The notes: a model not told the origin generated them from the sequence alone. Counted from the stretch's first letter, positions 5,666 through 26,516 are shown. The stretch is DNA of 64,000 nt from an uncultured Christensenellaceae bacterium (GCA_910588015.1 CAJUOK010000003.1:48193-112192); one strand, 5' to 3'. A program made the numbers and translations.

Positions 5666-5666
5666 A

Positions 5667-6668: not shown

Positions 6669-6692
6669 ATTTAACTCCTTATATTTATGAAT

Positions 6693-7064
6693 TCATTGGC
6701 TTACTTTGGCTGACCTGATTGCGCCGCTCAAACGAATACGCCCCGCCGTTATTCCTCCCGATAGAGCTATCTCTACGTTTCGCCAACCTCTTTCCAAAGA
6801 CAGCGGTCGAATGGTTATCAATCCCAATTGTCTGCCTGCGTTTTTGCCGTCGACAGTCACGTCGCATTGAGCCTCTCCGCCCTGCGACAGCGCTATTGCT
6901 TCAAGCTCCGCCTCGCCGCCTTGAGAATAAACGCGAAGACTTATCTTGCCTGCTCCGTCCGTCAACGGCATAACGAAATAATACGAGGATATTGCCGACG
7001 CAATGTGTCTTTCCAAACTGTCGGATAAATCTGCGACGGTCGATTGGATTTTCTTTATATTCAT
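6693..7064 (-). CDS. Hypothetical phage protein (123 aa).
   Basis: ORF in track, in a tight same-strand series. Confidence 0.35.
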   Translation of the reverse strand: MNIKKIQSTVADLSDSLERHIASAISSYYFVMPLTDGAGKISLRVYSQGGEAELEAIALSQGGEAQCDVTVDGKNAGRQLGLITIRPLSLERGWRNVEIALSGGITAGRIRLSGAIRSAKVSQ

Positions 7065-7073
7065 AATCTCTCC

Positions 7074-8501
7074 TTATTGCAAAAAATCTATCTCGAGTAT
7101 CGGCGGTCTTATCTCTTCGCGCATATTGTCGGAACGAATATAGAATACGAATTTGTCAGACTTGACGTATATATTTACTCTGTTTTCCGTAGGCGACAGG
7201 ATAAATTCGCGCCGCTCCCCGTTTGCCATTATTCCAAGCACGTACTGACAGCAAGCGCTGTATTCCACCGCTCTCACGACTTTAAAAATCGACGGTCTGT
7301 CAAAGTCTATCTCGCCGCTCTGCCAGTATTTTTGATACGGCGCGCCGAAATAAAGTCCGCTGCCGTCCAACTGAACGGGCGAAGCGCAATCTTGCGAAAG
7401 TCCTATGACTTTTCCCTCTCCGTAAGCCCCCACCGTCTTGAGGTCGTAGAGAGATATTCCGCGCATAAATTCCACAGATTTTTCGGCTATGTCCAATATC
7501 AAAATTGTGTTGTTGGCGCGACTTTGCGAAAACACTCCGTAGTCGCACTCTTTCTCGTCTGTAAACGACATTATATAGCGACCGTGGGCGTAACACGCCG
7601 ACGCGTCTTTGAATCCGCCGTCGAACAAACCGTCAACTCCGACGTTGATTTTCGTCACGGCATATCCGTCGAAAAGATATATCCCGTCTTGGCTTGCAAA
7701 GGCTATGTATTCGCCGCATTCTTTGACCGAATCGGCAAATATCTTCCCTCCCGACGCATATACTTTCTTCATAGAAAACTGCGTTTGGTCGGCAAATGCC
7801 GTCAACCTGTAAATGCCGTAATCGCAAAAGATATAGAGATAATTTTCAAAGCTCTTGACGGTGTTGACGCTGCCCAAAGAACCGTCGAAATTTATGTAGC
7901 CGCCTTCTTCCAGTGAAACGTTCCAATTATAAGGGTCGAAATCGTCGCTGAATCTCAAAGAATTTCGCTTTCCCTCGACGACGGCGTATATTCTCTCGTA
8001 ATGAACGCACATATCCAGTATGCGCGCGTCGGCTTGAACGTCGACCAACTCTCCGTCGGCAAGAGCTTTGAGTCCCTTCTCTCCCGAAAGCAAGAGCAAG
8101 TCTTTATCTTCGTAAAGATAATTGACTCCCACGTCGAATATTCCGTCGGTCTCTATATGCTTCCATTGAGTCTCTCCGCAAACCGTATATTCCAATCCCC
8201 CTCGGTGAGACAGCGCAAAAGCCGTTTTGAGTTGTCCGCCCAAGTCGACTTTGGTAACAAAAAGCCTTTTTTTGCCTTCGACTGACGGCATCGGCGGAAT
8301 CGCCGTTTCGTCGACTTCCAACGCGCTTATGCCCAACGGATTGATTAGAATTCCGTTTTTGAATTTAAAATTATACGCGCAATCTACGTAATCGCAAGGC
8401 AGATTTCTCGACGCCTTTGTTTCGTCGAAGCCCTTGAACCCGGACAGCAAAACTCTCTTTCGCCGAGGCTTGGCAAGAGCGTAATTTTTGTCGTAAAACA
8501 T
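7074..8501 (-). CDS. Hypothetical beta-rich phage structural-like protein (475 aa); possible receptor-binding or tail-fibre protein.
   Basis: Repeated G-x-Y-x-F-D-G-like segments (YINFDGSLG, YLFDGYAV, GLFDGGFKD). Lies between a holin pair and small phage-like ORFs. No domain recognised with certainty. Confidence 0.35.
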   Translation of the reverse strand: MFYDKNYALAKPRRKRVLLSGFKGFDETKASRNLPCDYVDCAYNFKFKNGILINPLGISALEVDETAIPPMPSVEGKKRLFVTKVDLGGQLKTAFALSHRGGLEYTVCGETQWKHIETDGIFDVGVNYLYEDKDLLLLSGEKGLKALADGELVDVQADARILDMCVHYERIYAVVEGKRNSLRFSDDFDPYNWNVSLEEGGYINFDGSLGSVNTVKSFENYLYIFCDYGIYRLTAFADQTQFSMKKVYASGGKIFADSVKECGEYIAFASQDGIYLFDGYAVTKINVGVDGLFDGGFKDASACYAHGRYIMSFTDEKECDYGVFSQSRANNTILILDIAEKSVEFMRGISLYDLKTVGAYGEGKVIGLSQDCASPVQLDGSGLYFGAPYQKYWQSGEIDFDRPSIFKVVRAVEYSACCQYVLGIMANGERREFILSPTENRVNIYVKSDKFVFYIRSDNMREEIRPPILEIDFLQ

Positions 8502-8502
8502 A

Positions 8503-9054
8503 TCAGTACCACCTTCTGGGTTTAATTTTGACGTTGCCCTTTTTTCTTACCGCAGTGCGCATATCTTCTTTGAATCTATCCGAATACATAACCGATTGCT
8601 CATACATTCCGCAAATCATACTGTATTCGGCGCATATGCCCAAAGCCAACGTCTTTGCGCCCACCGTCGGAGATATAGGACATTCTTCTTCGATATCTAC
8701 CTCCAACGGCGCGTAAGAATAAAGTACGTCTGCTCTTTTCATATCCTTGTTGGCAACGGCGCAATGCGTCGGCGTGAGATAAAAATTGGATTCCAATCCG
8801 CTGTCAGCGTCTACGACTTTGCGAATTTGCGCAGACTTGTGAAGCAAATTTTCGAGAAAAATTTTTCCGTCATCAACATCCACTCTCTCTTCTTCAAGCA
8901 AAGGCGCATACTCCGCGGCTATTTCTTGGATGACCAAATTGGCGCACTTGACAAGTAATTTCAGCTTGGGATGCTGCGCCGTTTGAGCGTTGACGCTCGC
9001 GTCTTCGTCGCCGAGATACGTCAGGCAAATCCTTATAGCTTCTTTGAGTTGCAT
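8503..9054 (-). CDS. Hypothetical phage protein (183 aa).
   Basis: ORF in track; stop/start abutting its neighbour. Confidence 0.35.
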   Translation of the reverse strand: MQLKEAIRICLTYLGDEDASVNAQTAQHPKLKLLVKCANLVIQEIAAEYAPLLEEERVDVDDGKIFLENLLHKSAQIRKVVDADSGLESNFYLTPTHCAVANKDMKRADVLYSYAPLEVDIEEECPISPTVGAKTLALGICAEYSMICGMYEQSVMYSDRFKEDMRTAVRKKGNVKIKPRRWY

Positions 9055-9069
9055 ATTCCCTCCTCAAGG

Positions 9070-9384
9070 TCACAGGCGCAGACCGCCCATAGCCTTTTCT
9101 ATTATTTCTTGCCTTTTTTGTTCTTCGACGCGGGCGTTGTTGGCGTCGATTTGCGCAAGTATCTTTTCTTTGTTTTTTACACTGCTTTGCACTGCAAAAT
9201 CCAACGCCCTTTTGTCGAGATTCTTATAAGGCAAAACTGCTTGAAAAGACGGAGACTTTGCCGAATTGTGCAATTCGTATCTGCAAGTTCCCCTGTCGTA
9301 ATAGATTTTGTAATTTTCGTCTATGCTCTTTATTCTTGCCGATATATCGAACAAATCGTCGGTTATCTCCGTCAGTCTTTCCAT
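9070..9384 (-). CDS. Hypothetical protein (104 aa).
   Basis: ORF in track. Confidence 0.35.
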   Translation of the reverse strand: MERLTEITDDLFDISARIKSIDENYKIYYDRGTCRYELHNSAKSPSFQAVLPYKNLDKRALDFAVQSSVKNKEKILAQIDANNARVEEQKRQEIIEKAMGGLRL

Positions 9385-9399
9385 AATTGCCTCTTATTT

Positions 9400-9615
9400 T
9401 CAGCTCACGGTGATACCGCTGAGTTTTGCCTGACCGATAGGCTTATCGCATATCATATCGGCGTACTTGACGAGAGTTGCACCGTAAGTTGCGCTGCCCG
9501 CCTTTTGCTTGATGACTTTGCCGTTGTCGCCCTCGAGCCACCGCTTGACCTGTGAGAAGTCTAAACAGAAATAAGGGCGATAGATAAAGGTAAAAACGGG
9601 CATCTCCCACCCCAT
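9400..9615 (-). CDS. Hypothetical small protein (71 aa or shorter); first gene of the late-like fragment.
   Basis: ORF in track; follows a strong terminator. Confidence 0.25.
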   Translation of the reverse strand: MGWEMPVFTFIYRPYFCLDFSQVKRWLEGDNGKVIKQKAGSATYGATLVKYADMICDKPIGQAKLSGITVS

Positions 9616-9621
9616 AAAAGT

Positions 9622-9652
9622 CTAGAAAAAACAAAAAAGGCTGCCCAAGGGA
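9622..9652 (-). terminator. Strong rho-independent terminator ending the cargo operon (minus strand: AGGCTGTCCC-TTG-GGCAGCCT followed by TTTTTTGTTTTTT).
   Basis: Read directly from the reverse complement of 9622-9652; it starts 17 nt after the stop of the 470-aa gene. Confidence 0.6.
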
Positions 9653-9668
9653 CAGCCTAAATTGTGAT

Positions 9669-11081
9669 TTATTTCTTATAAACAGAGAGAGTTTTCGTAA
9701 TATCGGAAGTGAGGTTTTTGCCACTCCTCTTTTTGTCGCTCGATGTTTTTGCCAAGCTGAACCAATATTTACTGCCTTTATAAACCAGTTTGTAGTGGGT
9801 ATTATCGCTCGTAATTTCAAACCCCACACGCTTTAATTCAGCCAGCTCTTTTGCGGAAAGTTCCTCGCCATCCGCAAAGACGGACTTTACCACATCGAGC
9901 ATTTCCTTGCCGTTTCCTATTATTTTATTATGCGCCAACAGGTCAGTTATAAGCTCTTTCTGCCGAGTGTCTTTTGAACCGCAGTTCGACAGTGCCTTCT
10001 GCAAAATCGACACAAGCAAATCGTGCTGTTCACCATCAAAGAACTCTGGAATGGATGAAGGTTCTATTATCGTCTGCACCGCTTCGCTTTTTGTGAGCGC
10101 AGTTTGGAGACTGTTGCACTTTGCGGTCAAAGACATATTTTCTTGAACCAAGGCAGCAATTCTCGCCTCCGCCTTTTTTAATTTTTCATCTAGGGTTTCG
10201 TTATCACCAAGTGCTTCTTCTGCCAAGGCTGCACTCTCTTTCGCTTCCTTTCGAACTTGCTCGGCGTGTAATGCTTCCCATGTAGGCGCATCCGTATCCA
10301 CGGCAGAAGTTACAAAACGCTGAACTTCATTTGCTATCTGCTTATCAAGGGGCGCGCCCAGGTATGCATTCCGCTTCCGAAACTGTCTAGGTCTTCCGCC
10401 CTTGGTGTAAATACAAACTGCACCATTGAAGGGTGTTGCGTGGTTTGCCCTATCTTTCAAAAGCCGAGTGTATTCGTTATCGCAAACCACCACATACGCA
10501 AACCCCGCAAGTTTCTTTGACAGCGTATATTCCTCTATTTCCGTTGCCCGTGTATCGAAGTATGTAGTAGCTAAAACCAACGGAAGCTCATCGTCATATT
10601 CTTCCCGTATTGCTCCCGCTATCCAGTCTATCAGCTCATTCGTAGGTTCAACGGGTTTTGAAGTTATAGGTACTTTCGGCTGTTTAAGGAAGCCGCTATC
10701 AACGAAGGAGCGTATAACATCCGTGCGCATCTCGGGAGCTTCGTCAAAACGAGTAGCATCACGGGAACAGTCAATGTGGAAATAAACTATCTTTCCAACG
10801 GAACTGCATTCAAAGATAATCTCCGTAGTCCAAGTCTGCTCGTGGAACACTTGAGCAATCTTGAAAAGCGTGTAAACTTTTCCGTCTTTTTCTATACGGG
10901 AAGTGTCCGCCGTGCAATACTCCGCTTCCAAGTGTACACCGATTTTATCAGCGCAGGCTTCAAGTTGCTCTGCCACTGCCTTGCACGGTCCAGCCTCTGT
11001 CAACCACTTATTAATAATATTGAAATACTCGCTTTCGGAAAAGGAGTCGACCATTTTAACTTTCGTAGAAACTACACGCAT
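9669..11081 (-). CDS. Hypothetical protein (470 aa), no recognisable domain; start overlaps the stop of the RNase III-like gene.
   Basis: ORF in track; acidic coiled-coil segment in the middle; last gene before the terminator. Confidence 0.5.
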   Translation of the reverse strand: MRVVSTKVKMVDSFSESEYFNIINKWLTEAGPCKAVAEQLEACADKIGVHLEAEYCTADTSRIEKDGKVYTLFKIAQVFHEQTWTTEIIFECSSVGKIVYFHIDCSRDATRFDEAPEMRTDVIRSFVDSGFLKQPKVPITSKPVEPTNELIDWIAGAIREEYDDELPLVLATTYFDTRATEIEEYTLSKKLAGFAYVVVCDNEYTRLLKDRANHATPFNGAVCIYTKGGRPRQFRKRNAYLGAPLDKQIANEVQRFVTSAVDTDAPTWEALHAEQVRKEAKESAALAEEALGDNETLDEKLKKAEARIAALVQENMSLTAKCNSLQTALTKSEAVQTIIEPSSIPEFFDGEQHDLLVSILQKALSNCGSKDTRQKELITDLLAHNKIIGNGKEMLDVVKSVFADGEELSAKELAELKRVGFEITSDNTHYKLVYKGSKYWFSLAKTSSDKKRSGKNLTSDITKTLSVYKK

Positions 11082-12137
11082 CAGTCGTTCCTCGCGTTCT
11101 CGTGATTAAGAATGGAGCGGAGCATTTCGTATGCGGCTAACCGTTTAGCTTCCTTTTTCGAGCTTGCTTCATCATAATAGCAATCTTCATATTCTTCAAT
11201 ACTACATTCGCAAGTCCATACGGGATTACCATCGTCATCGTGGTCTTCTTGGAACTCATAAATAGGAAAAGAGAAATACCCCTTTTGTGCAAGCTCCTGA
11301 AGCTGACTCACTGCCTTCTCGAGAGTGGGTTCATCAATTTCATCTTCCATCGTCCGAAGCAAACCTTGCTCGTCCAAGTAATCATACGCAAGCTCTGCCG
11401 CAGCCATTCTTGCCAGGCTCTTGGAATACCCAAAGCCAACAAACGGCGCACCATTATCTATGCGTAATTCACAAACGATATCCCCTTCGCCTTGCTCCAT
11501 ACGCCTTCTAGTTCCAACTTGTATAGAGCGCATATTGCAGTGATATTCATACCTTGAATTATAGAATTTATAAAACGGCAACTCTCCTACACGCTTCTGC
11601 TGCCACTGCTGAATAATGGAAACATAATCCTGGTCTGTGCCGAAGCCATTTTCCAAGTAACAATCAATGTGGAGCATCATTTCTACCGCATCTTGCATTG
11701 AATCCATATCCCAATCACTGTCAAGGGCAACTGCGCCGAGTATGGCTTCAAACAAGTCCTCTTTTACATTCGTTTTGGACATTATTTTTTCTGTCCCCCT
11801 TGCCCATTATCAAATAATCTGTAAAACCCATCTCATCAATGCGTTCTGCCAACATCTTACTTTCCACAAGGTGCTTCTTGAACTCCGTGAGCTTCCCCTC
11901 ATTGTGTTCACACTCGTACTCTTTGCCATCGTTGATTTCGCCGTAATACTCCGTCAAAACCTTAACGATTACCAAGTCGAGAACCTTATCGCCTATAAAC
12001 TCCAACACTTCATTGTTTTCGCCATCGTGCGTTTCTTGCGTATAACTTTTCCGCGTAAACGCTTGCTGCAACAACAATCTGTTCTTGAACTCGTACCCGA
12101 TTTGTGATTCAATTTCATCGTACTGTTCATCCTTCAT
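11081..12137 (-). pseudogene. rnc-like: RNase III homolog (catalytic domain plus two dsRBDs) split into two overlapping ORFs (11748..12137 and 11081..11782) by a frameshift at a T6/A6 homopolymer (11785-11790).
   Basis: N-ORF: IGYEFKNRLLLQQAFTRKSY...NEVLEFIGDKVLDLVIV is the RNase III signature, ending ...GKGDRKNNVQ. C-ORF: KEDLFEAILGAVALD is the second catalytic motif, followed by two dsRBD motifs (GFGYSKSLARMAAAELAYDYL and EASSKKEAKRLAAYEMLRSI). Removing one A from the A6 run joins the frames with the expected motif spacing. Confidence 0.6.
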
Positions 12138-12399
12138 AATAAAAATACCTCCTGTGTTTTTTCACAGAGGGCATAGAAAGAGCCTGACGAAATATAGACT
12201 ACGCCCTTGTAGCCTCGCCAGGCATCCACTCGATAAATGGTGTTATATAAATCACTCGTCCTTGATTCCAGTCACTTGCATAACAGGTCACAAATCCAAT
12301 ATGCTTTACATCCAACTATTTATGTCGCAATGCCTTCTCTGTACTTTCATTATATCAAACTCGACATAATCCGTCAAGGGGTATGTGCCATATTTCTCA

Positions 12400-12448
12400 A
12401 AATGTAAAAAAGTAAACGTCAAAGGAGTCGGCATTTCTGTCGACCCCT
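12400..12448 (-). terminator. Putative terminator after gene 12470..12949 (minus: AAGGGGTCG-loop-CGACTCCTT followed by a T-rich tract).
   Basis: Imperfect stem around the SalI site, followed by TGACGTTTACTTTTTTAC on the minus strand. Confidence 0.3.
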
Positions 12449-12469
12449 TCTTCATCTTTATGTATGACA

Positions 12470-12949
12470 TTAAAAGTATTCGATGCTGTCCAAGAACTCC
12501 TTAACGTTCGGCATTTCTAAAACCTCAAAGATAGTTTTAGAAAAACTTCCTTTCCTGTTTGCCATCAACTGAACGCTGACAGACACTTGGTTTTGGTTGA
12601 GTTTGTTGCGAGGGAAGTCATACCGTTCTTCGTACATATCACTGTATGCGCCACCATAATAATGCACCGATAACGCTGTACCCTTTCCGCGGGTAATAGG
12701 TTTGAAATCGCCTTTTATATGCAAATCGCAATCTCCTGCAAATTCCTCCATAGCTTCCTTTGCGGTCAACTCGGCATTTTCAAATTCTATGTCGATATAA
12801 ATTATTCCACCTTTTACTACCCGCTTATCCGACTTAAACTCTAGCAGATGCACTCCACAACCCGTAGGCTGAAGAGTAAGGTAAAAATCTTCGGGCAACG
12901 CAAACGAGATGTTTGATGCCACCAATTTACCATTTTTTACTCTTACCAT
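12470..12949 (-). CDS. Hypothetical protein (159 aa).
   Basis: ORF in track. Confidence 0.4.
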   Translation of the reverse strand: MVRVKNGKLVASNISFALPEDFYLTLQPTGCGVHLLEFKSDKRVVKGGIIYIDIEFENAELTAKEAMEEFAGDCDLHIKGDFKPITRGKGTALSVHYYGGAYSDMYEERYDFPRNKLNQNQVSVSVQLMANRKGSFSKTIFEVLEMPNVKEFLDSIEYF

Positions 12950-13094
12950 TTGTGATACTCCATTTTCGATAAAAACAGTCAGGGTTCGATATTCTTTCTC
13001 TTTCTGAAACTATCGCATTTTGATATAATTATTACAATCAGTATCTTCTCCCGCCGTCATTACTCTTTGGCGGCTTTTTTGCTGTTATCGAACG

Positions 13095-13337
13095 CTACAC
13101 AACTTCTGTGACAGTGAGTTGGAACACCTGCCCGTTTTCCATCCTCATCAACACACCCTTTGTGTTCTTCGCAAAAGTGCCGCAAAAATAGTCATCCAGC
13201 AACGGATAAATCTGCATTGCTAAATCAAACCCGTTGATTTTAGTACCTTGCATCGCTGTCTCAAACTGCTCTTTGTCTTCTTCGGTGTGAATGTAAGGTT
13301 TTCCTTCCATAACCTTTAACTCCTTAATTTTATTCAC
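13095..13337 (-). CDS. Hypothetical small protein (80 aa), divergent from the HTH regulator.
   Basis: ORF in track. Confidence 0.35.
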   Translation of the reverse strand: MNKIKELKVMEGKPYIHTEEDKEQFETAMQGTKINGFDLAMQIYPLLDDYFCGTFAKNTKGVLMRMENGQVFQLTVTEVV

Positions 13338-13360
13338 TTTTTTGCGCGCTTCAAGTGTAC

Positions 13361-13408
13361 TTCAATTATACTCTCCCATCGGCGTAACACGCAACTGAAA
13401 ATTGCGCA
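13361..13408. promoter_or_regulatory. Nested inverted repeats: a 9-bp perfect IR (CTCTCCCAT ... ATGGGAGAG) enclosing a CGCAA-N9-TTGCG IR. Candidate operator in the divergent promoter region.
   Basis: Read directly; located 38 nt upstream of the HTH regulator start. Confidence 0.4.
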
Positions 13409-13445
13409 AATGGGAGAGAATAAAATGTAGAAAAAGGACTAGTTT

Positions 13446-13889
13446 ATGGATAATTTGTCGAAACTCTCTGAAATGCTCGATTCGCTAATGTTCGAGCGCG
13501 AATTAAACCTTACGCAACTTGCCAAAGAAATAGGTATCGAAAAAGCAACCTTGAGCCGTTACCTTCACGCTTTAATGACGCCTTCCGTTGAAAATCTCGT
13601 GAAGTTAGCGGATTATTTTCAATGCACTACTGATTACCTATTGGGGAGAGAAAATGAAAACTATCCCTCTGCTTTCAAGCCGTGTCCACCGTTTTCAGAA
13701 CAGTTACTTGTATTGAAAAAACACTTTAACTGCCCTTGGTGGAATTTCTACAAAACCGCGCACATTTCAAGTTCTCGCTTTTATGAGTGGAAGAACGGCA
13801 AACGCACACCAACCCTAGATTGCATAATTTTTCTAGCAGATGGTTTCGGCTGCACTGTGGATTTCATCATTGGAAGAACGAAAATGTAA
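13446..13889 (+). CDS. Transcriptional regulator with two tandem XRE-type HTH domains.
   Basis: LTQLAKEIGIEKATLSRYLHA...VENLVKLADYFQCTTDYLLG, and a second HTH (ISSSRFYEWKNGKRTPTLDCIIFLADGFGCTVDFIIG). It is the only plus-strand gene inside the minus-strand island. Confidence 0.6.
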   Translation: MDNLSKLSEMLDSLMFERELNLTQLAKEIGIEKATLSRYLHALMTPSVENLVKLADYFQCTTDYLLGRENENYPSAFKPCPPFSEQLLVLKKHFNCPWWNFYKTAHISSSRFYEWKNGKRTPTLDCIIFLADGFGCTVDFIIGRTKM

Positions 13890-13901
13890 CTATAGATTTC
13901 T

Positions 13902-13950
13902 AGCCGTGATAAGGGGTGCTTAATCCTCTTACCACGGCTTTTCTTTCTAA
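13902..13950 (+). terminator. Rho-independent terminator after the HTH gene (AGCCGTG ... CACGGCT with a nested stem, then TTTTCTTTCT).
   Basis: Read directly. Confidence 0.45.
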
Positions 13951-14112
13951 TTCCCTTTCCACTCCACCAGATAAATCTGTATGCAGGCTGACATATAGGG
14001 CGGATGTTCCCTGTGGTTTCTTGGGCGTGGATATTTGCACTTACCACGCAGCTCCGGTGCCTTTGGAAAGGGTTATATACTCGCCGTGCAAAGCGAATAT
14101 AGCAAATTTTAC

Positions 14113-14283
14113 TTATCCATCACCTTCATTGACATTATCTTTTTTTTCGATTTCTTTATCAATCGCTTCATCGGCTTTCTTTCTGTTCATTTCCATAAAA
14201 ACTGACACAAGCAGGTCAACAAACGCTTCTTCCGAATTTGGATTATGAAACCGAAAATTAAATTGCTGTTTTTCCTTTTTCAT
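14113..14283 (-). CDS. Small ORF (56 aa), translationally coupled (ATGA) to the macrodomain gene stop.
   Basis: ATG at comp. 14281-14283 overlaps the TGA of the upstream gene. Below the 60-aa track cut-off. Product MKKEKQQFNFRFHNPNSEEAFVDLL... Confidence 0.25.
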   Translation of the reverse strand: MKKEKQQFNFRFHNPNSEEAFVDLLVSVFMEMNRKKADEAIDKEIEKKDNVNEGDG

Positions 14284-14762
14284 AATTTCCAAATTTCAAC
14301 CTGCCACTCATCTTCGGCAAACTCTTCTTCGATTATTCTCTGTACTTTTATCCAATCTCCGCCCGCAAGTCCACATCCAATATGGTCTGGAAATCCAATC
14401 TTAAACCCCTTGCCCCCAAACTTGCCGTGCGCTGAATTATAATCGTTGATTTCCGTTTTCAGCTCAATTAAGCATTTTCGGAAAGCATCGTAATCGGTAT
14501 GAATCACACCCCTGGGTCTATAATCAAACTGCGAATATAGATTAATAATGAAACGGAATTCTTGTTGAATATAAACTACATCAATCTTCCCGAGCCGATT
14601 CCCCTTGGAAGCAAACGAAGTCATAAAAACATCGTAAACCTGTGGATATTTATTTCGTATAGCTTTTGCGATGCCAGCGTTCATCACCCCTTTGCAGTTT
14701 ACCTGGTGGCATATTACATTGCAGTCGCTTGCAAGTAAATCTCCCCTTTTATACGAAACCAC
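14280..14762 (-). CDS. Macrodomain protein of the TARG1/OARD1/DarG type (ADP-ribosyl hydrolase-like), stand-alone.
   Basis: GDLLASDCNVICHQVNCKGVMNAGIAKAIRNKYPQV and IGFPDHIGCGLAGGDW align with TARG1 [27 protein letters not shown]...PRIGCGLDRL. The likely true start is a GTG at 14760-14762, 6 nt after an AAGGAGG RBS; the track ORF extends to 14828. Confidence 0.75.
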   Translation of the reverse strand: MVSYKRGDLLASDCNVICHQVNCKGVMNAGIAKAIRNKYPQVYDVFMTSFASKGNRLGKIDVVYIQQEFRFIINLYSQFDYRPRGVIHTDYDAFRKCLIELKTEINDYNSAHGKFGGKGFKIGFPDHIGCGLAGGDWIKVQRIIEEEFAEDEWQVEIWKL

Positions 14763-14763
14763 T

Positions 14764-15189
14764 TCAATCCTCCTTGGATTCCCACTCTTCTTTATAATAC
14801 CGAATATAGTCCGCCACAAGACGCGCATTAGTTGGCAATGCTGCCCTACACACCTTTTTAAATAGTTCTACGGCTCTTGCATCAAAACAAAAGCCCAGTA
14901 AGCCGTCCAGAAGCCTTGAGACTTCTTCCTCGTCCACTTTATCGCTTCTGCCCAAACGAAGGCACACGTTGGCAACTGTCGGCTCATAAAGCGACACAGC
15001 GGTTTCAACTAACCTTGACCTATTTTCTAGCAGCACTTTGATTTTATTAAGCGCCGTATAAAGACCATAGTTGAAATCGCTATCGGTTGCAGATGTGGAC
15101 TTTTCTCTTTCGATTTCTTGACTCAAATTTTCAAGTACACCAACTACTATTTTTATATTTTCATCTTGCATATTAACCTTGCCGATCAC
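14764..15189 (-). CDS. Hypothetical helical protein (141 aa), coupled to its neighbours.
   Basis: ORF in track; ATGA overlap with the upstream gene; stop is 1 nt before the macrodomain GTG. Confidence 0.4.
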   Translation of the reverse strand: MIGKVNMQDENIKIVVGVLENLSQEIEREKSTSATDSDFNYGLYTALNKIKVLLENRSRLVETAVSLYEPTVANVCLRLGRSDKVDEEEVSRLLDGLLGFCFDARAVELFKKVCRAALPTNARLVADYIRYYKEEWESKED

Positions 15190-15701
15190 CCGTGCAACAA
15201 CTTGTACACTGCATCGAATAAAACACCAAATGTCTCGTTCGTTAACGGGAGCGAAAGCACACGCTCCCCAATTTTGAATTCCACTTCAGATTTCGACTTA
15301 ACCTTTGCTCCTTCTCCAAACTGATGGTTTATCTCATCCAAGTAATCCACAAATGCTTCAAGTTCCTTTTGCTTTTCAATAGTTAGTCCTCGCATATTTT
15401 CTCCTCCATATTTCTTTTTTAATTCTTCAAATACAACTTCGCCGGGGATTAATCGCCCCGCTTTGACCTCATCCATTCCCTTCATTAATTTTTTGTATAA
15501 ATCCACCCGTTCCAAGACTTCCTCTGGCGGAAGTTTAATTGCGAACGGAATACTGCGTGTGTACACAACTTGATAAAGATAAACGGCTATTCCTGTATCA
15601 AGCGATAAGCCAAGCTCCGTGAATATTGTTTTCGCAAGCTCAAGCATATGCTTGTCAATTGTAAAAGTAGCCTTCGTTTTTTCGTTATCCTTCATTCTCA
15701 A
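15186..15701 (-). CDS. Protein with an N-terminal RelB/DinJ-type antitoxin domain and a C-terminal extension (171 aa).
   Basis: ATFTIDKHMLELAKTIFTELGLSLDTGIAVYLYQVVYTRSIPFAIKLP matches the RelB/DinJ ribbon-helix-helix consensus. No cognate toxin gene is adjacent. Confidence 0.5.
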   Translation of the reverse strand: MRMKDNEKTKATFTIDKHMLELAKTIFTELGLSLDTGIAVYLYQVVYTRSIPFAIKLPPEEVLERVDLYKKLMKGMDEVKAGRLIPGEVVFEELKKKYGGENMRGLTIEKQKELEAFVDYLDEINHQFGEGAKVKSKSEVEFKIGERVLSLPLTNETFGVLFDAVYKLLHG

Positions 15702-15987
15702 CCTCTCCTATAATCTCGAATTCCCCCTCGGAATATGTTACGGGACTGAATACAGATTTTCCAAACCCACTATTCCCCATTCGATGTAAATCAACTTCCT
15801 CGGCAACGAAAACTGGCACATATTGTGGGGTATTCTGCTCATACGGAAGAATGATTGCTGAAATCGAAACATAACCTTCAACGACTTTATAACCATCCGC
15901 ACTAACGGGTTCAGACGAAGTTGTGAAGGCATCTCGTGCCTTTACCCTTGCCCGATACTTTTTGATTGTCTTTCCATTAATCGTCAC
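15685..15987 (-). CDS. Hypothetical protein (100 aa).
   Basis: ORF in track; overlaps the downstream gene by 17 nt. Confidence 0.35.
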   Translation of the reverse strand: MTINGKTIKKYRARVKARDAFTTSSEPVSADGYKVVEGYVSISAIILPYEQNTPQYVPVFVAEEVDLHRMGNSGFGKSVFSPVTYSEGEFEIIGEVENEG

Positions 15988-15999
15988 TGCCGTACTCTC

Positions 16000-16665
16000 C
16001 TAATCGGTAATATAAATAAAGCATTTATCTCTGTTCCGCTCGTAAACGAGGAAAGGAATCTCCGCTTTAGCCAACATCTCGTTATTCACTTTTTCATAAT
16101 TGTAGGTTTGAAACCCAGGGTATAACTTTATCAATCTATCCCTTGCCTCTTTTGCGCAAAAGAAATCGGTTGTGTCATCTGCATCAAACAGCTCTTTGAA
16201 CTTGACAAGCAAGCACGGAATTTCAATGACCTCCATAAATCTCTGCTCTTCGTCAACACTGATACGCTCTTCCTTTTCGCCATCTACATAACAAATCTTT
16301 CTCCCATTCATCCAACGAAAATGAACCTTGTTAGATTTTATGCTCTCATCAGAGAACCCAAGAAACTTGTACATTTTTTCTCTGTTGATTTGGCTGATTT
16401 TTACTACCTTTTCCGAAAAAACATCCCTGGGGATTTTCGCTATGCTCTCATCCTTCAAATGAAACCGCATGATAGAATACGGGTTAAATTCGTCCCAATT
16501 ATGACCGTCTCCAAGCAATCGCTCATCATCGGAAACATTAAAATATTTAACCTTTTCCAATTCGGCTGCGGACAGCTTTTCAAATTTATAAATGTGGATA
16601 TCAACACTCATTTTTAATCGTCCTCCACGACAAGCACGTTGATAATTCCGCTGTAATAGGTACAA
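16000..16665 (-). CDS. Hypothetical protein (221 aa; the start may be the internal Met at about 16611).
   Basis: ORF in track. Confidence 0.4.
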   Translation of the reverse strand: MYLLQRNYQRACRGGRLKMSVDIHIYKFEKLSAAELEKVKYFNVSDDERLLGDGHNWDEFNPYSIMRFHLKDESIAKIPRDVFSEKVVKISQINREKMYKFLGFSDESIKSNKVHFRWMNGRKICYVDGEKEERISVDEEQRFMEVIEIPCLLVKFKELFDADDTTDFFCAKEARDRLIKLYPGFQTYNYEKVNNEMLAKAEIPFLVYERNRDKCFIYITD

Positions 16666-17435
16666 GCATCCAAAGCAACTAAACCTTCCTCGGTGTACGG
16701 CTCAAACGCCTTTTCCCAGTTCTTTCTGCTTTTGTTGGGGAACTCCTTATATTTCTGTAAAATGTGCGCCCATCCCCAGGAGCAATGCCAATGACCGCAA
16801 ACTATTGTCTTCCCAGGTTCTTTAATATTATGCTTGTGTGCAAGTTCCATCCCGTTAAACCAACGAGCCTCTTCCCACTGTTCTTCGCTTGCGCTTCGCC
16901 AGTCTGCGTTATACTTGTACTTCGTAGCCTTGGGATTATTAGGATACACGCTTTTTTCAACCATGCAAGGAATCCATCCGTGGACGAAAATATAATGCTC
17001 GGTTTCGAAGTAGTTTTTCATCGCCGGGATGATTGTTTTGATAAACGGCGTGTTCACCATTTTAGTTACAAATTTCAATGGGTTATGCATAACATCATAG
17101 TCCGACATTTTCACGAGCTGTTCGCAAGTGTCAATTGTGCCGTTGCTGTAATGATGCGAATCACGGAACCGAAAGGTATAAAATCCTATATTAATAATCA
17201 AATCAAGAATTAAGTCCTCGTGGTTGCCTTTAATAAGGATAACCTTGTCCATTTCCATCAGTTCCAATATGTACTTCTGAAGCTGAACCGCCTCGGGGCC
17301 TCTATCCATTAAATCCCCACAAACAATCAATTTATGGTTTTCATCTTTGGGGTTGAACCCTTTTTCATTCAGTGCGTTAATCAATTCATAATAATAGCCG
17401 TGAACATCGGCAACAACAAAATACTTCATTCTCAT
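16614..17435 (-). CDS. Calcineurin-like metallophosphoesterase, PPP-family Ser/Thr phosphatase (lambda-PPase-like).
   Basis: Motifs ADVHG, GDLMDRG and GNHE at canonical spacing. Confidence 0.7.
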   Translation of the reverse strand: MRMKYFVVADVHGYYYELINALNEKGFNPKDENHKLIVCGDLMDRGPEAVQLQKYILELMEMDKVILIKGNHEDLILDLIINIGFYTFRFRDSHHYSNGTIDTCEQLVKMSDYDVMHNPLKFVTKMVNTPFIKTIIPAMKNYFETEHYIFVHGWIPCMVEKSVYPNNPKATKYKYNADWRSASEEQWEEARWFNGMELAHKHNIKEPGKTIVCGHWHCSWGWAHILQKYKEFPNKSRKNWEKAFEPYTEEGLVALDACTYYSGIINVLVVEDD

Positions 17436-17439
17436 CCTT

Positions 17440-17898
17440 TCAATTCTTTATATCTTTAAAATTTCCATAGGTACATTTACTTGCACATTCTTTGCAATAA
17501 TAAGTAATATACCCCACAGACTCCTTCGTTGCTCTCTTTCCGCAAATGATGCAAGTTCGCCGTGAAAGCTCAACGTACCTTTTCTGCCAAGCGTAATATG
17601 CATTAGAAACCGATTCTGGGCAACCATTGTCATACCACCGCAAGGTTCCATATTTTTCTTTTATTTGAGTGATGCGATACACATCCAACCCGCCGCCTTT
17701 TACAAGGATTTCTTTGAGTTCTCTACACATCTGCAATCCAAAGGCAATACACCAACCATCTGGCAAATCATCTAGCTCGGTGTATGAATAATCGTAATCA
17801 TCCGGTACATTCCCCGTCCAACGATTCCGTGGCAATAGAAAAGGAAATTCCGCTATGAGAGCCTTATTCTCTTCAATTGCCTCCTTACCGCGCATCAC
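17440..17898 (-). CDS. Cys-rich hypothetical protein (152 aa).
   Basis: ORF in track; C-terminal CxxC...C...C cluster. Confidence 0.4.
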   Translation of the reverse strand: MMRGKEAIEENKALIAEFPFLLPRNRWTGNVPDDYDYSYTELDDLPDGWCIAFGLQMCRELKEILVKGGGLDVYRITQIKEKYGTLRWYDNGCPESVSNAYYAWQKRYVELSRRTCIICGKRATKESVGYITYYCKECASKCTYGNFKDIKN

Positions 17899-19015
17899 TT
17901 CTTACCTCAAAAATATATTTCAAAACAGTGTCCATCGAAGGCTTGTACTCTCTCATTGCTGACACTGCTTCCTCCGCTGTACTATAACCCTGAACCAAAA
18001 TAAAAGCCAGTGTTTTCAACTCTCTTTTATCACCGCCCAACCTAGCCACAATTTGATTATGGTTCGCATCGAATATCTGTACCCAGTCATCGGTTTCCAC
18101 TTTTCGATACCTTATCAGCCAAACATCTGCCGATGCACATAGCAAGAACCTATCGTTATCACGGAGAATAATCTGCGTAAGCAAAGCCGAATGAAACTTC
18201 AAATCATAAGTCTCGCCATTTGAGTCTGTGTATTGCAGTTCAAACCCATCTAAATACCCAAAGGTCTCTTTAAGAAACTGAACTTCTCGAACCAACTCTT
18301 CATTCCGTAAAGAGAACGCATTTTTCTCGTATTGGTACTCATTTGGCAAATCCTCGATAAACTTCGTAAGGTTTTTTTCGCTGCCATACAGCGTTTCCGT
18401 GGTATCTGCATTCAGCTTCGTTTTAATGGTAATTGCGCCATATCTAGGGGGCAATCCATTATCGAATGGATTCTGCATCCACTCATCCAAATCAAAGCCC
18501 CATTTCTCCTCACAAAACTCGTCCCGATATGTTTCTCGAAGCCACGCCATCTTGTCTTTCATTTGGCATATTATGGGGGCAATGTCAAAATCCGAGTAAA
18601 TCTGTGCGCCTTTTAGAATATCTAAAATTTCATTACCCCAAACCCAGGTATCATATTTATCATCGTCATCCAGTTCGCTCCCTACTTTGCTATACGAAAT
18701 CATCAAGCGATCATCTTTTAAGAAATGATTTGTATGCATATTGGGAACGTATTTCAACGCCTTGATTCCCTTGGAAGAAAGATAACCGAACCGTTTATAA
18801 TACCGCCCGTAAACAAACAACTCGGGCAGTTCGGAAGCATACAGCTTCGTTCTCCCATAGTTGGCGGCAAGCAGCGTTCCATCATTGCTTCCCACATACC
18901 GATAATTTCCATCGACACGTTTGAAATCATGTAAAAAATATAAATGACCTCTTACTCTCTTTTTCATTTTTCTACCCATCTCCGAATACATCCTCAAAAA
19001 ACCGATTCCAGTCAA
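17885..19015 (-). CDS. Hypothetical protein (376 aa).
   Basis: ORF in track. Confidence 0.4.
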   Translation of the reverse strand: MTGIGFLRMYSEMGRKMKKRVRGHLYFLHDFKRVDGNYRYVGSNDGTLLAANYGRTKLYASELPELFVYGRYYKRFGYLSSKGIKALKYVPNMHTNHFLKDDRLMISYSKVGSELDDDDKYDTWVWGNEILDILKGAQIYSDFDIAPIICQMKDKMAWLRETYRDEFCEEKWGFDLDEWMQNPFDNGLPPRYGAITIKTKLNADTTETLYGSEKNLTKFIEDLPNEYQYEKNAFSLRNEELVREVQFLKETFGYLDGFELQYTDSNGETYDLKFHSALLTQIILRDNDRFLLCASADVWLIRYRKVETDDWVQIFDANHNQIVARLGGDKRELKTLAFILVQGYSTAEEAVSAMREYKPSMDTVLKYIFEVRSDAR

Positions 19016-19724
19016 GTGCCGATAAATTATTGTATCGCGCTTCTGCTTCCTGTTCCGTTTTATAACTTGTATCTATTACACCTAGCAAGTTCTGTATCGT
19101 TTTTCCTTTAATTTTTAGAACGCCGGGGAAACCCCAAATCATATCCCCCAACGCAACCCACCTTTTATGCGGAATAAGCTCATCCTTATACCTCGGGTTC
19201 GTTGCCGTGACCCAATACACAATATAAAACTGCTTACCTAATTTGACGAGGGCAACTCTACCTACAGCCTTGCTTATACGACATTTATAATAAAAACCAT
19301 ACGAGTTTTCGTATGTATAGCTAATCCTCTCGAATTCGAGGGGTTTTTCCTTTATCAATTTAGTTGGACGAGCAAATCTGGTAACACACTGCCCCGCGTG
19401 ATAGATGATTTTTCTCTCACCTGCAACAAAATGTTCAAAGGTGTTCCGCTCCTCTTCTAACTGTTCCTCGGCAGCATTATCAAGCACGGCTCGAAAATCA
19501 TCCAACGTGCCAAAATATAACTTTGTAAATGAAGTACAGCTCGGGGCTGCGTAATCATCTAGCTCGAAGGCATAGAGTTGCTTTTTAGAGTCCATAATTA
19601 TAATCCTTGCTAAATTATAGCATAATAAAAGTAGCGAAAATCGACACCAATGAAAATGTAATTGAAAATCGCCAAAATGTAAAAAAGTATGCCAAATCAA
19701 CCGACAGTTTATGCCCTTGACCAT
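18972..19724 (-). CDS. Hypothetical protein; the likely start is the internal Met (MDSKKQ, about 19598), preceded by an AAGGA RBS and a TATAAT.
   Basis: ORF in track; a TATAAT -10 is found in the reverse complement of 19625-19640. Confidence 0.4.
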   Translation of the reverse strand: MVKGINCRLIWHTFLHFGDFQLHFHWCRFSLLLLCYNLARIIIMDSKKQLYAFELDDYAAPSCTSFTKLYFGTLDDFRAVLDNAAEEQLEEERNTFEHFVAGERKIIYHAGQCVTRFARPTKLIKEKPLEFERISYTYENSYGFYYKCRISKAVGRVALVKLGKQFYIVYWVTATNPRYKDELIPHKRWVALGDMIWGFPGVLKIKGKTIQNLLGVIDTSYKTEQEAEARYNNLSALDWNRFFEDVFGDG

Positions 19725-19760
19725 CGGTGTATTGCTTTCAATATGTTGTTAGCCGTAGAA

Positions 19761-20126
19761 TTATCGTGAGTTCTTGCGCTTGGAAAGGAAATGATACTCC
19801 CTCATCGCCCTCTTCACCGAACTCGCACATTCAATCATAACCCGACGTTCGTATGGAGAGCAGTCGTGAAATAAGGCATCATATTCCTTAATATCCACAA
19901 CGAGGTAGTCGTTCAAACTCTCCGCCAAAAGCATATCCGTAGTTACCCCCAAGGCATTAGCAATAAGTATGAGCGTGTCAAGGCTCGGACTTTTAATCCC
20001 GCTCTCTATGTAACTGACATAAGTCGGAGTTTTGTCTATAATCTCCGACAACTTTGCTTGCGACAACCCCTTTTTCTTGCGAATTGTCTGAATTCTTTTA
20101 CCCAAAAGAATATAATTGAGTGCCAT
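19761..20126 (-). CDS. cI-like repressor (XRE-family HTH, 121 aa).
   Basis: KKKGLSQAKLSEIIDKTPTYVSYIESGIKSPSLDTLILIANALGVTTDMLL; divergent from a cro-like gene across an operator-bearing spacer. Confidence 0.65.
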   Translation of the reverse strand: MALNYILLGKRIQTIRKKKGLSQAKLSEIIDKTPTYVSYIESGIKSPSLDTLILIANALGVTTDMLLAESLNDYLVVDIKEYDALFHDCSPYERRVMIECASSVKRAMREYHFLSKRKNSR

Positions 20127-20180
20127 TTTGAATTACCTCCAAAAATTTTGTTATCTCAATTATAGTCCGCAGTAGATATT

Positions 20181-20252
20181 ATCGTCTATGGTAGATTTCA
20201 AATATCGCCTATAGATGATAAAATTGTAATGATAATATGCTCCATAGGCGAA
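20181..20252. promoter_or_regulatory. Three operator-like copies of ATCGYCTATRG: 20181-20196 forward, 20204-20219 forward, 20237-20252 inverted. Divergent promoters include TTCAAA-N17-TAAAAT for cro and a TATAAT for cI.
   Basis: Read directly in the 130-bp cI-cro spacer. Confidence 0.45.
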
Positions 20253-20265
20253 GGAGGTGCTTGTA

Positions 20266-20628
20266 ATGGATGAGATTATAGATTCAAACCAACTCAAAGA
20301 AATTGGGCAGCGCATTCGTTCTGCACGACTCGCCGCGGGACTCACACAATCGGATTTAGCCTTCTCCGCAGACATTCGAACTTCGCACATCAGTGATATT
20401 GAACTTGGCAAGAAGCAATTAAGCATCCTTACCTTTTGTAAAATTATAGAAGCACTTCGAGTTTCGGCGGACGAAATCCTCCGCCCCAACACTCCAGAGG
20501 TCAACCGTATTTATCAAAACGAATTCTCGCAGTTGCTTCAAGACTGCACCCCCACGGAAATTGAGTCGCTTCTCAAAATCGTAAAAGAGATAAAAACCTC
20601 TCTGCATAACAAAACTGATAATGACTAG
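20266..20628 (+). CDS. Cro-like / XRE-family HTH regulator (start at the ATG after AAGGAGG; the track begins at GTG 20257).
   Basis: LKEIGQRIRSARLAAGLTQSDLAFSADIRTSHISDIELGKKQLSILTFCKIIEAL. Confidence 0.6.
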   Translation: MDEIIDSNQLKEIGQRIRSARLAAGLTQSDLAFSADIRTSHISDIELGKKQLSILTFCKIIEALRVSADEILRPNTPEVNRIYQNEFSQLLQDCTPTEIESLLKIVKEIKTSLHNKTDND

Positions 20629-20654
20629 GAAGGTTCGCTGTCCTAGTTTTTTTC
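20625..20654 (+). terminator. Rho-independent terminator after cro (CTAGGA-loop-TCCTAG followed by TTTTTTT).
   Basis: Read directly. Confidence 0.55.
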
Positions 20655-20911
20655 TGGGTTCTATTTATTTTAACATCTGCGCGAATTTTCCCGTGAATAC
20701 ATTTGTCAAGTTTTCCCCGTCAAATTCCATCTCTTTTTTGACATTTGTATAATTCTTCATTGAGTGGACGTCTATTCCACTCTTTTTCTTTTTGAAAACT
20801 CAATCTTTTTTGCTTTTTATAAACTAGTGGTTTATGTACTTGACCGCTGGTTTATTCTTTTTTTCCGCGGGTGCTTTTATAATGGTCATAGTTTTAACTT
20901 AAGAGGTAACT

Positions 20912-21565
20912 ATGGCAAACGAAATAAAAAGCACAACCCCTGACAAAACCGATAACCTTGATGCAACCGAGATTGAACTAGTCAATAAATTTAACGAAAT
21001 AGCAAGAACCCCACAATTATTTTTTTCAGCAGATACCTCGTCCGAACGGGCAAAGAAAATCGCACAACACAAAGTGTGGTTGAGTAGCATCCGTCACGAG
21101 TTCCCTAGCCCCGCCACTCATTTTAAGGTCGGTGTTTATATTCGTTATTTCAACCAAACCAAGTACGATGATTACTTGGAAACCCATAAGGCTATGTTTA
21201 TGGACGCCATCTCGCTCTGCCCCAACTGGGAGTTCGTTGGCTACTACATTGATGAAGGATCAACTGCACCCAATATGGAAACCGCTGCCGAATGGTCTCG
21301 GCTTCTCAACGATGCCACGGAAGGAAAGGTTGATTTAATCATCACCCAAAAAGTCTCCAATGTATCAAAGAAAATTCACGAAGTTACCCTTTGCGCAAGA
21401 TTGCTTGCTGCAATGGAACACCCCGTTGGTATCTACTTCCTTTCCGAAGATATTTATACCTTGGCTTCGTATTATCAACACGATTTGAGAGATACATTCT
21501 TTTTACCCAATAACGACACGGAGGCGTTGCCCGAAGGAACAGATAAAAAAGGCTTACTGAAATGA
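20912..21565 (+). CDS. Resolvase-catalytic-domain paralog lacking the catalytic serine; predicted inactive.
   Basis: KVGVYIRYFNQTKYDDY...CPNWEFVGYYIDEGS...GKVDLIITQKVSNVSK aligns with the next gene (RVGIYVRVSTDDVRQ...HPNWTLIKIYPDEGISG...GKLDLIITKSVSRFARN). The motif Ser is replaced by Phe and the SRFAR motif is lost. ATGA overlap with the recombinase start. Confidence 0.55.
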   Translation: MANEIKSTTPDKTDNLDATEIELVNKFNEIARTPQLFFSADTSSERAKKIAQHKVWLSSIRHEFPSPATHFKVGVYIRYFNQTKYDDYLETHKAMFMDAISLCPNWEFVGYYIDEGSTAPNMETAAEWSRLLNDATEGKVDLIITQKVSNVSKKIHEVTLCARLLAAMEHPVGIYFLSEDIYTLASYYQHDLRDTFFLPNNDTEALPEGTDKKGLLK

Positions 21566-24199: not shown

Positions 24200-24240
24200 C
24201 CCTTTTCAAAGGAGAATTAAATCATACGGAGGAGATATCA

Positions 24241-26508: not shown

Positions 26509-26516
26509 ACAACTCA

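Follow-up and report, generated by a model that had tools for sequence, protein, structure and literature searches.

In a 64,000-nucleotide stretch of DNA from an uncultured Christensenellaceae bacterium (GCA_910588015.1, CAJUOK010000003.1:48193-112192; hereafter the window), positions 9622-20126 hold a gene island that we read, with modest confidence, as the terminal arm of a composite siphovirus prophage, built from a conserved early operon and a swappable cargo bay that carries a mobile RNase III cassette. About 17 minus-strand open reading frames (ORFs) and one plus-strand regulator lie between an XRE-type regulator gene (19761-20126) and an intrinsic terminator (9625-9658). In this account, they would form four zones. 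Zone A (20126-16614) would be the operon of a 12-kb recombinase/switch module, with genes for an XRE regulator, a NinI-like Ser/Thr phosphatase and three products of unknown fold; zone B (16611-14113) would be a variable, translationally coupled extension; zone C (13889-12306) would hold a divergent regulator and small genes of unknown function; and zone D (12377-9625) would be a self-contained mobile cassette consisting of a sigma-70 promoter, a leader, an RNase III with two double-stranded RNA-binding domains (dsRBDs), a 470-residue protein (p470) and the terminator. A preliminary description had viewed the entire ten kilobases as a cargo island co-oriented with a cI-like repressor, as rexAB follows cI in lambda; that reading is partly supported by the evidence below.

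The outer limit of the arm was set by comparison within a set of ~180 related loci. All nine near-identical loci (L001-L009) diverge at 9541-9542, where the common sequence ends in ...CAGGTCAAGCG, 84 bp past the terminator. Three unrelated flank types lie beyond 9542. One, shared by the window, is the 3' end of a small conserved gene; the second (type B; L002, L004 and L008) is the inside of a terminase-like gene that precedes a P22-type portal gene in a podophage-like prophage; and the third consists of ordinary host genes. Because the nine loci break at the same base into three kinds of flank, the prophage-host junction is at 9542. At times, the phage integrates within a packaging gene of another prophage, and such insertion inside a terminase-like gene suggests a low-specificity or multi-site serine recombinase. 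Exact-protein look-ups recovered the same arrangement from hundreds of mouse-gut metagenome assemblies at >98% nucleotide identity, with siphophage, recombinases, a plus-strand operon and island always together, and a genome scan placed the close relatives in metagenome-assembled genomes of uncultured Christensenellaceae/Clostridia. From 64000 down to ~31500, the window carries the lytic genes of a temperate siphovirus (helicase, primase, DNA methyltransferases, terminase, portal, capsid and tail). The island is the terminal arm of this ~65-kb composite prophage. Genes at 9384-5157 were considered as part of the island and rejected, since they lie past 9542 and belong to a resident podophage-like remnant.

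Distant relatives, found through homologues of a 364-residue island protein and through IMG/VR, separate the arm into a conserved and a variable part. A 12-kb module is conserved in these relatives at 46-85% amino-acid identity. Its first arm comprises DUF6551, u323, u130, u245, the serine recombinase LSR635, res217 and a helix-turn-helix (HTH) protein; its divergent second arm comprises the XRE regulator HTH121, u250, u376, u152 and a PPP-family phosphatase. The module is kept in L055-L059, L061-L080 and L182-L184, and in distant relatives it adjoins the same siphophage family, with a tail protein 80% identical; a scan of IMG/VR with u376 peptide patterns gave no match. In the window, HTH121 is followed by the minus-strand backbone operon 16614-19595, made up of u207 (18972-19595), u364 (17885-18979), u151 (17440-17898) and a NinI-like Metallophos phosphatase (16614-17435; Pfam, 2.4e-16; phrog_246, 2e-29). 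What follows the phosphatase, here called bay 2, differs between relatives: host genes may begin at once, or the position may hold MmeI-type restriction-modification genes, DNA methylases, WYL/HNH genes or T5orf172. A second variable position, bay 1, lies between DUF6551 and the phage recombinases and holds GmrSD, an AbiL-like AAA_21/RloB pair, HipA with an HTH gene, or RNase III/p470 in relatives. In the window, bay 1 is an empty 108-bp spacer (26484-26590) between the convergent DUF6551 and recombinase genes, and bay 2 is the distal ~7 kb of the island, between the conserved backbone and the prophage-host junction. Since the content after the phosphatase varies while the genes from HTH121 to the phosphatase are kept, the first 3.5 kb belong to the backbone and the rest to cargo. 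The comparison supports the view that everything past the phosphatase is a variable cargo bay and that the distal ~7 kb act as accessory cargo. The ten-kilobase cargo island of the preliminary description thus shrinks to its distal ~7 kb, the proximal 3.5 kb (HTH121, u207, u364, u151 and the phosphatase) being conserved backbone; the defence or anti-defence character claimed for the island is likewise supported for the distal bay, with its p470 gene resembling the defence protein HEC-07 and with restriction-modification genes in the relatives' bay, but not for the backbone.

Cargo hotspots at prophage ends are well known. As with lambda cI-rexAB and the prophage-end defence hotspots of P2/P4-type phages and lambdoid morons, accessory immunity genes are placed here at one end of the prophage, by the attachment junction, and vary in content among phages that are otherwise alike. 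The present layout differs in that two bays flank a conserved recombinase/switch module, that the same cassette occurs in either bay, that the leading regulator lies, by its orientation, on the Cro side, and that the cargo is probably not read through from it. The phage family is a clean natural example of such a two-bay layout, which serves guilt-by-location discovery in the little-studied gut Clostridia. The contiguity of the module also bears on whether the 17 kb at 9542-26540 could be an independent integrative element, a satellite or mobilisable island beside the siphophage, with the island as its cargo arm. The region does have its own large serine recombinase and resolvase-like gene, a divergent regulator pair, a ParB-like DUF6551 gene and a GC content below that of the structural region, and ~65 kb in total would be large for the capsid type. 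However, the module is contiguous with tail genes and recombinases of the same siphophage family in close and distant relatives alike, the right-hand junction, where the host flanks vary, closes the unit as a whole, and the 17 kb lack replication, packaging and capsid-remodelling genes. By the measure of satellites of the phage-inducible chromosomal island type, there was no match to pri/rep, terS or capsid-remodelling genes, and the region is always contiguous with the siphophage family. An independent satellite, which we judge very improbable, was rejected once the IMG/VR loci had been examined.

Within the composite prophage, zone A opens with HTH121 (19761-20126, minus strand), a 121-residue XRE/HTH_3 regulator (Pfam HTH_3, 3e-17) kept in all backbone relatives. 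Its paralogue HTH123 (20257-20628, plus strand), 29% identical over 101 residues and with the same C-terminal extension, heads the divergent recombinase operon. The 130 bp between them (20127-20256) contain back-to-back promoter-like sites, three TCGYCTATRG repeats and a 19-nucleotide tandem repeat; judged from sequence, the repeats are probable operators of a bistable switch. HTH121 shares its strand with the genes for helicase, primase, terminase and tail proteins. In the circular phage, it would be followed, past the attachment site, by the replication and late genes; HTH123 has the direction of LSR635. A lambda-type repressor gene is oriented with the integration genes and points away from the replication and late genes, which is not the orientation of HTH121; being co-oriented with those genes, HTH121 looks, by analogy, more Cro-like than cI-like. 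The downstream genes had been said to follow the cI-like gene directly, but a 165-bp regulatory spacer intervenes (19596-19760, minus strand), with a 9-bp hairpin (19700-19728), two TTACATTTT repeats and an extended -10 element, TGcTATAAT (19622-19614), 19 nucleotides upstream of the ATG at 19595. The same hairpin, TTACATTTT repeats and TGnTATAAT occur in L061, L055 and L068, whose proteins are 50-70% identical to those of the window, and the consensus hairpin contains one compensatory pair among four sequences, which is weak support. Promoter-like matches overall are not enriched (31 against 26.8 expected). Retention of the TATAAT at 50-70% protein identity goes beyond a chance consensus match, and this internal promoter, noted in the preliminary description at about 19630, is real and probably regulated. 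Eleven genes run from it to 14113 with overlapping or very short junctions, and the run then meets the convergent gene HTH147.

Zone A would be driven by this conserved extended -10 promoter. As it is co-directional with the replication and late genes, it most likely is an early, induction-phase operon and not a lysogen operon. An operon leading from a Cro-like regulator towards replication genes and including a calcineurin-like phosphatase recalls the lambda nin region with NinI (phrog_246), the difference being that the neighbouring genes here have no PHROGs relatives. The alternative, in which HTH121 is the maintenance repressor and a rexAB-like defence operon covering the whole 10 kb is transcribed together with it in the lysogen, appears unlikely to us. 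The co-oriented genes with short or overlapping junctions between 19595 and 14113, a prophage-end position typical of lysogenic-conversion genes, defence-related matches, and two divergent XRE genes with operator-like repeats resembling an immunity switch would all agree with it. Against these stand the direction of HTH121 with the replication and late genes and of its paralogue with the recombinase, the conserved hairpin and separate conserved promoter after HTH121, a plus-strand gene that breaks the run, an RNase III cassette that brings its own promoter and leader in every context, and the status of the first five genes as backbone rather than cargo. These same features argue against a single operon read from the regulator and against the cI-rexAB arrangement put forward in the preliminary description; its co-oriented run stands for the ~17 minus-strand ORFs and is interrupted by the tandem-HTH gene (13446-13889), which lies on the plus strand.

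The distal part of the cargo bay is occupied by the RNase III cassette. Its strong promoter (12349-12377, minus strand), from which a third transcription unit would start, consists of TTGACG, a 17-nucleotide spacer and a TG-extended TATAAT, with 11 of 12 consensus positions matched, and both boxes are kept upstream of the leader in every genomic context. The RNase III gene (11081-12137, minus strand) has two dsRBD-like regions and matches Pfam Ribonucleas_3_3, Ribonuclease_3 and dsrm. The RNase III homologue of the preliminary description is confirmed as a family match, but the gene is split in the window: a 5-bp deletion (AACCC, ~11770) between the two catalytic motifs divides it into ORFs of 129 residues (11748-12137) and 233 residues (11081-11782). 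All relatives have intact genes of 353-369 residues, and the motifs NNEVLEFIGD and KEDLFEAILGA are invariant in eight of them. Both acidic motifs plus a dsRBD in an intact protein, as in class 1 RNase III, are thus found in the relatives and not in the window. Owing to the deletion, the cassette in this genome is probably crippled. It ends, together with the prophage arm, at the terminator 9625-9658 (minus strand), a 9-bp hairpin with 6 GC pairs (9638-9658) followed by U6GU6 to ~9625, with an energy of -18 kcal/mol (z = -4.8 against shuffles); its great strength had been recognized before, at coordinates a few bases off.

Between the cassette promoter and the RNase III gene lies a 5' leader of ~190-210 nucleotides (12138-12346, minus strand). 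When the regions upstream of RNase III from all contexts are aligned, promoter and leader are more conserved than the proteins. In the RNAalifold consensus (60 pairs), an invariant helix (GGCAU/AUGCC) closes the structure, which also has two long, irregular hairpins and a further one in which the Shine-Dalgarno sequence is sequestered; the minimum free energy has z = -2.5. Compensatory changes affect 14 of the 60 pairs in an alignment of 8-9 distinct sequences, with 97.7% of cells paired, a level that none of 500 shuffles reached, and slid controls gave at most 5. A covariance model found the leader upstream of every sequenced RNase III-bearing cassette, including three on IMG/VR contigs, and never beside p470 homologues without RNase III. 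A relaxed DNA pattern for the leader had yielded 38 IMG/VR stretches, three of which the covariance model accepted as real; the rest were chance matches. Rfam 15 gave no match at E <= 0.1 on either strand of 9000-21000.

The leader of the Escherichia coli rnc operon, the Rfam entry rncO, is an autoregulatory substrate of RNase III. Like rncO, the present leader is long, structured and directly upstream of an RNase III gene, and its hairpins (~18 bp and ~28 bp) are long enough for RNase III. It differs in having no Rfam match, in its architecture of a closing helix, two long hairpins and a Shine-Dalgarno-sequestering hairpin, and in serving a mobile accessory RNase III rather than the housekeeping rnc-era operon. 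From the hairpin lengths and the rnc analogy we infer autoregulation by self-cleavage: the leader may be an autoregulatory RNase III substrate or a Shine-Dalgarno-sequestering switch. RNase III would cut the long hairpins of its own leader and thereby keep expression of the bicistronic messenger RNA low.

The second cassette gene, p470 (9669-11081, minus strand), encodes the 470-residue HEC-07-like protein. Its AlphaFold2 model (mean pLDDT, a per-residue confidence score, of 83) shows an N-terminal alpha/beta part, a coiled coil and a small alpha-beta3-alpha C-terminal domain; the second domain has a thioredoxin fold without CxxC, and His429 in the C-terminal domain is invariant in the p470 family. 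The PADLOC profile HEC-07 matches residues 81-230 at E = 3.7e-9 (profile positions 105-258 of 553). HEC-07, found embedded in Hma systems, lowered the plaquing of two or more phages in E. coli by orders of magnitude and is described as composed of AdoMetDC-like, CxxC-free thioredoxin-like and RelE-like RNase domains (10.1101/2024.01.29.577857). The likeness to p470 extends over the junction of the N-terminal and thioredoxin-like parts matched by the profile, the thioredoxin fold without CxxC and a small C-terminal domain with a conserved histidine; both proteins are usually encoded by a single gene and lie within or next to other defence systems. By contrast, p470 has 470 rather than 553 residues, contains an inserted coiled coil of ~65 residues with a helical linker, and ends in an alpha-beta3-alpha topology that is HicA- or dsRBD-like and not demonstrably RelE-like; moreover, the p470 genes of one sub-clade are accompanied by an RNase III gene and by a leader RNA with structure. 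The C-terminal profile produced no meaningful match against PDB sequences, and a Foldseek search of p470 against the PDB returned thioredoxins and weak beta-sheet folds only. An hhalign comparison of the C-terminal domain with an approximate E. coli HicA sequence gave a probability of 40%. We suppose that p470 would be the constant sensor/effector of the cassette, its N-terminal module being of the HEC-07 type and its small C-terminal domain possibly RNase-like.

The p470 family is large: its close members form 54 clusters at 39-94% identity, and a profile search collected 1,854 clusters at 50% identity, nearly all of 460-490 residues. Members that carry a name in the sources are called hypothetical, the window member has no Pfam or NCBIfam match, and tblastn of p470 against phages gave none. 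In the sub-clade nearest to the window, an RNase III gene of 353-369 residues directly precedes p470 in widely differing places: at the extremity of another prophage, behind two serine recombinases (L033/34), on Mob_Pre elements (L036/37), one with a restriction-modification system and the other with a UvrD-type helicase, and in bay 1 of the same phage family beside GmrSD (L062, L182-184), in addition to bay 2 in the window. Elsewhere, the pair adjoins GmrSD, type I restriction-modification and toxin-antitoxin genes. The RNase III/p470 pair moves independently between mobile-element hotspots. Other relatives of p470 have an HNH nuclease as partner (Pumilibacter muris), or a leucine-rich repeat (LRR) protein that keeps a dsRBD, or no partner, and in some the HNH domain is fused to the C-terminal half of p470. 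A distant member in Prosthecochloris (L140) lies 31 bp after a type I hsdR gene and beside toxin-antitoxin genes. On 5.9-kb ColE1-type mobilisable Klebsiella plasmids (such as NZ_CP028803.2, L142), no large gene other than the p470 member is of unknown function.

We take the RNase III/p470 cassette for a probable immunity or addiction module; its two proteins would protect the lysogen or stabilise the mobile element through RNA cleavage once infection disturbs the system. A purely toxin-antitoxin-like addiction module, with the leader or RNase III as antidote and no direct antiviral role, would agree with the presence of the cassette at the ends of several kinds of mobile element and beside toxin-antitoxin genes, with the tight coupling of the pair and its autoregulation-like leader, and with the HicA-like topology of the p470 C-terminal domain. 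We nevertheless find this version improbable: p470 homologues often stand alone, HEC-07 is antiviral as a single gene, and toxin-antitoxin and abortive-infection roles are not mutually exclusive. In the window, p470 is intact while RNase III is frameshifted, which argues against RNase III as an indispensable antidote to a toxic p470. A bolder proposal, doubtful at present, is that RNase III and p470 constitute a new RNA-based antiviral system in which a leader-restrained RNase III is the sensor of double-stranded RNA (dsRNA) and a HEC-07-type RNase the effector. If true, prokaryotes would have a mobile equivalent of dsRNA-triggered immunity, switched by a new class of cis-regulatory RNA; one literature search found no RNase III-based antiphage system. 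An antiviral module would add dsRNA processing to bacterial immunity and offer a tractable regulatory RNA. The locus joins a validated but mechanistically obscure HEC-07-like family to an accessory RNase III and a covarying leader RNA.

Between backbone and cassette, zone B extends the operon (14113-16611, minus strand) with u203, u100, u169, u141, a macrodomain gene and u56 at overlapping or tight spacing. These genes occur together in near relatives and in L061 only; L055-L059 hold short fragments at most. The 169-residue u169 (15186-15695, minus strand) has a RelB/ParD-like N-terminal domain with a weak match (NCBIfam, 7.8e-10 and 38.8 bits against a cut-off of 60; Pfam, 0.0098). The macrodomain protein (14280-14762, minus strand; 160 residues) is of the DarG/TARG1 type (phrog_335, 1e-42; PADLOC DarG, 3e-17; NCBIfam DarG, 2.2e-15; closest PDB entries, 2fg1 and 5m3i), and its match to the DarG model is confined to the N-terminal 146 positions and scores 56.8 bits (cut-off, 250). 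No island ORF matches DarT/DUF4433, the ADP-ribosyltransferase expected beside the macrodomain gene in a DarTG system, in Pfam, PADLOC or NCBIfam. Family scans likewise detected no RelE/ParE partner for u169, and the downstream u141 has no toxin match, so that RelBE or ParDE is not represented as a pair. The genes u169, u141, macrodomain and u56 are translationally coupled.

Phages are known to use orphan antitoxins against host immunity: AdfN, a NADAR protein, against DarTG1 and a DarG2-like macrodomain of a chimallivirus as counter-defence (PMC11825919, PMC13309987). The present operon is alike in pairing a toxin-less DarG/TARG1 macrodomain with a RelB/ParD-like protein, and unlike in that its macrodomain protein has only 160 residues, falls far below the DarG equivalog cut-off and sits among two small genes without assigned function. 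Because orphan antitoxin-like DarTG neutralisers are documented in phages, counter-defence is our best guess, by analogy, for the u169-u56 cluster. The antitoxin-like proteins of zone B would most likely neutralise host toxin-antitoxin immunity, such as DNA ADP-ribosylation by DarT, in the manner of AdfN and the DarG2-like proteins of phages. With the orphan RelB-like and DarG-like genes, the idea of orphan-antitoxin counter-defence would be extended to temperate phages of anaerobes.

In another reading, the entire island, RNase III and p470 included, would be a lytic-phase region for host takeover and counter-defence, in which RNase III would process phage transcripts or degrade host immune RNAs, while the macrodomain would undo ADP-ribosylation and the phosphatase host kinase signalling. 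The direction of the island, which is that of the early and replication genes, the location of NinI-type phosphatases (phrog_246) in the early regions of lambdoid phages, the orphan antitoxin-like proteins and the presence of the cassette in IMG/VR viral contigs would fit such a role. We give it little credence, since the cassette also resides on non-phage Mob_Pre elements and p470 relatives in a chromosomal type I restriction-modification locus and on small plasmids, where a phage lytic function makes little sense; the cassette also has its own sigma-70 promoter, and its neighbours are defence genes, namely GmrSD, AbiL-like AAA_21/RloB, restriction-modification and toxin-antitoxin genes.

Several points weigh against our account of a composite arm with an early operon and a mobile cassette. 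The early or lysogenic timing of every zone is deduced from gene order alone, and there are three candidates for the maintenance repressor, namely HTH121, HTH123 and, at the far end of the phage, a LexA-like S24 protein. Macrodomain and phosphatase can serve many other roles. In the cassette, p470 has stayed intact despite the broken RNase III and does not differ from that of relatives, its C-terminal domain has no significant structural match to RelE or HicA by profile or Foldseek, and the HEC-07 match spans 27% of the model only; the antiviral assay stands for HEC-07 and not for the p470 family or its RNase III partner. The leader structure was derived from the same alignment in which its compensatory pairs were counted, the 8-9 distinct sequences of which represent about four lineages.

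Zone C begins with HTH147 (13446-13889, plus strand), which has two HTH-like regions, one at residues 19-65 (Pfam HTH_3, 3.6e-15) and one at residues 100-145 with PHROG hits, and is divergent from u80/u71 (13095-13337, minus strand), for which no family match was found. Downstream lie u159 (12470-12949, minus strand), which has no family match and a 58%-identical homologue in the cargo bay of L057/L064, and u54 (12306-12470, minus strand), a doubtful gene that shares sequence with the promoter of the cassette. Family searches gave no lead for u203, u100, u80, u159 or u54.

The island ORFs were searched against Pfam, PHROG, NCBIfam (ten proteins) and PADLOC. The macrodomain, the RelB-type domain (weakly), the PPP phosphatase, RNase III and the two-HTH regulator, all named in the preliminary description, were recovered by these searches, and PADLOC and profile searches, which it had proposed, returned the DarG macrodomain and HEC-07 besides HTH models as the only PADLOC matches. 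Eight of the ten proteins in the NCBIfam scan, including seven ORFs of unknown function and p470, had no match there. Its statement that the island lacks structural and replication genes is borne out, no island ORF matching such families in PHROG or Pfam. Megablast of the island against INPHARED phages gave no match, and a tRNA scan of the window gave zero.

The rest of the window is almost wholly minus-strand coding. The plus-strand operon next to the island (20257-26483) encodes HTH123, a resolvase-like 217-residue protein, the 635-residue serine recombinase LSR635 (21562-23469), three proteins of unknown function and ParB-like DUF6551. It is followed by three tandem large serine recombinase genes (26591-31411, minus strand), so that one prophage has four such genes, three in tandem and one preceded by the resolvase-like gene. 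In the lytic region, the tape-measure protein (37902-40640) is accompanied by a 1070-residue tail protein, and the large terminase (46743-48341) by the portal and major capsid proteins.

Past the junction, the remnant at 5157-9384 (minus strand) encodes ORFs of 104, 183, 475 and 123 residues, a DUF7934 protein, a BhlA-like 91-residue protein and a holin. It has no portal or capsid genes here; related loci have a P22/SU10-type portal in the same cluster. Further out, a gene at 3-3347 (minus strand) that runs off the window encodes a protein of >1,100 residues with a TIR domain and C-terminal BspA-type LRRs, and 3710-4735 (minus strand) encodes an SPFH/band-7 protein with double zinc ribbons; both may be further immunity genes of the resident remnant.

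Inside the phage, a low-GC patch (0.40) at 57448-58064 (minus strand) holds ORFs of 98 and 107 residues. By size and position, these match a Phd/YefM-ParE pair annotated in L019, L020 and L022, which are ~97-98% identical to the window in nucleotide sequence; L018 and L021 have a different insert at this site. At the far end of the phage, beyond position 64000 and seen in L018-L022, lies the gene for the LexA-like S24 protein, behind which some loci have genes for a Y-family polymerase and YolD. In L022, a third variable region at this end contains Thoeris (ThsA and two ThsB) and GmrSD.

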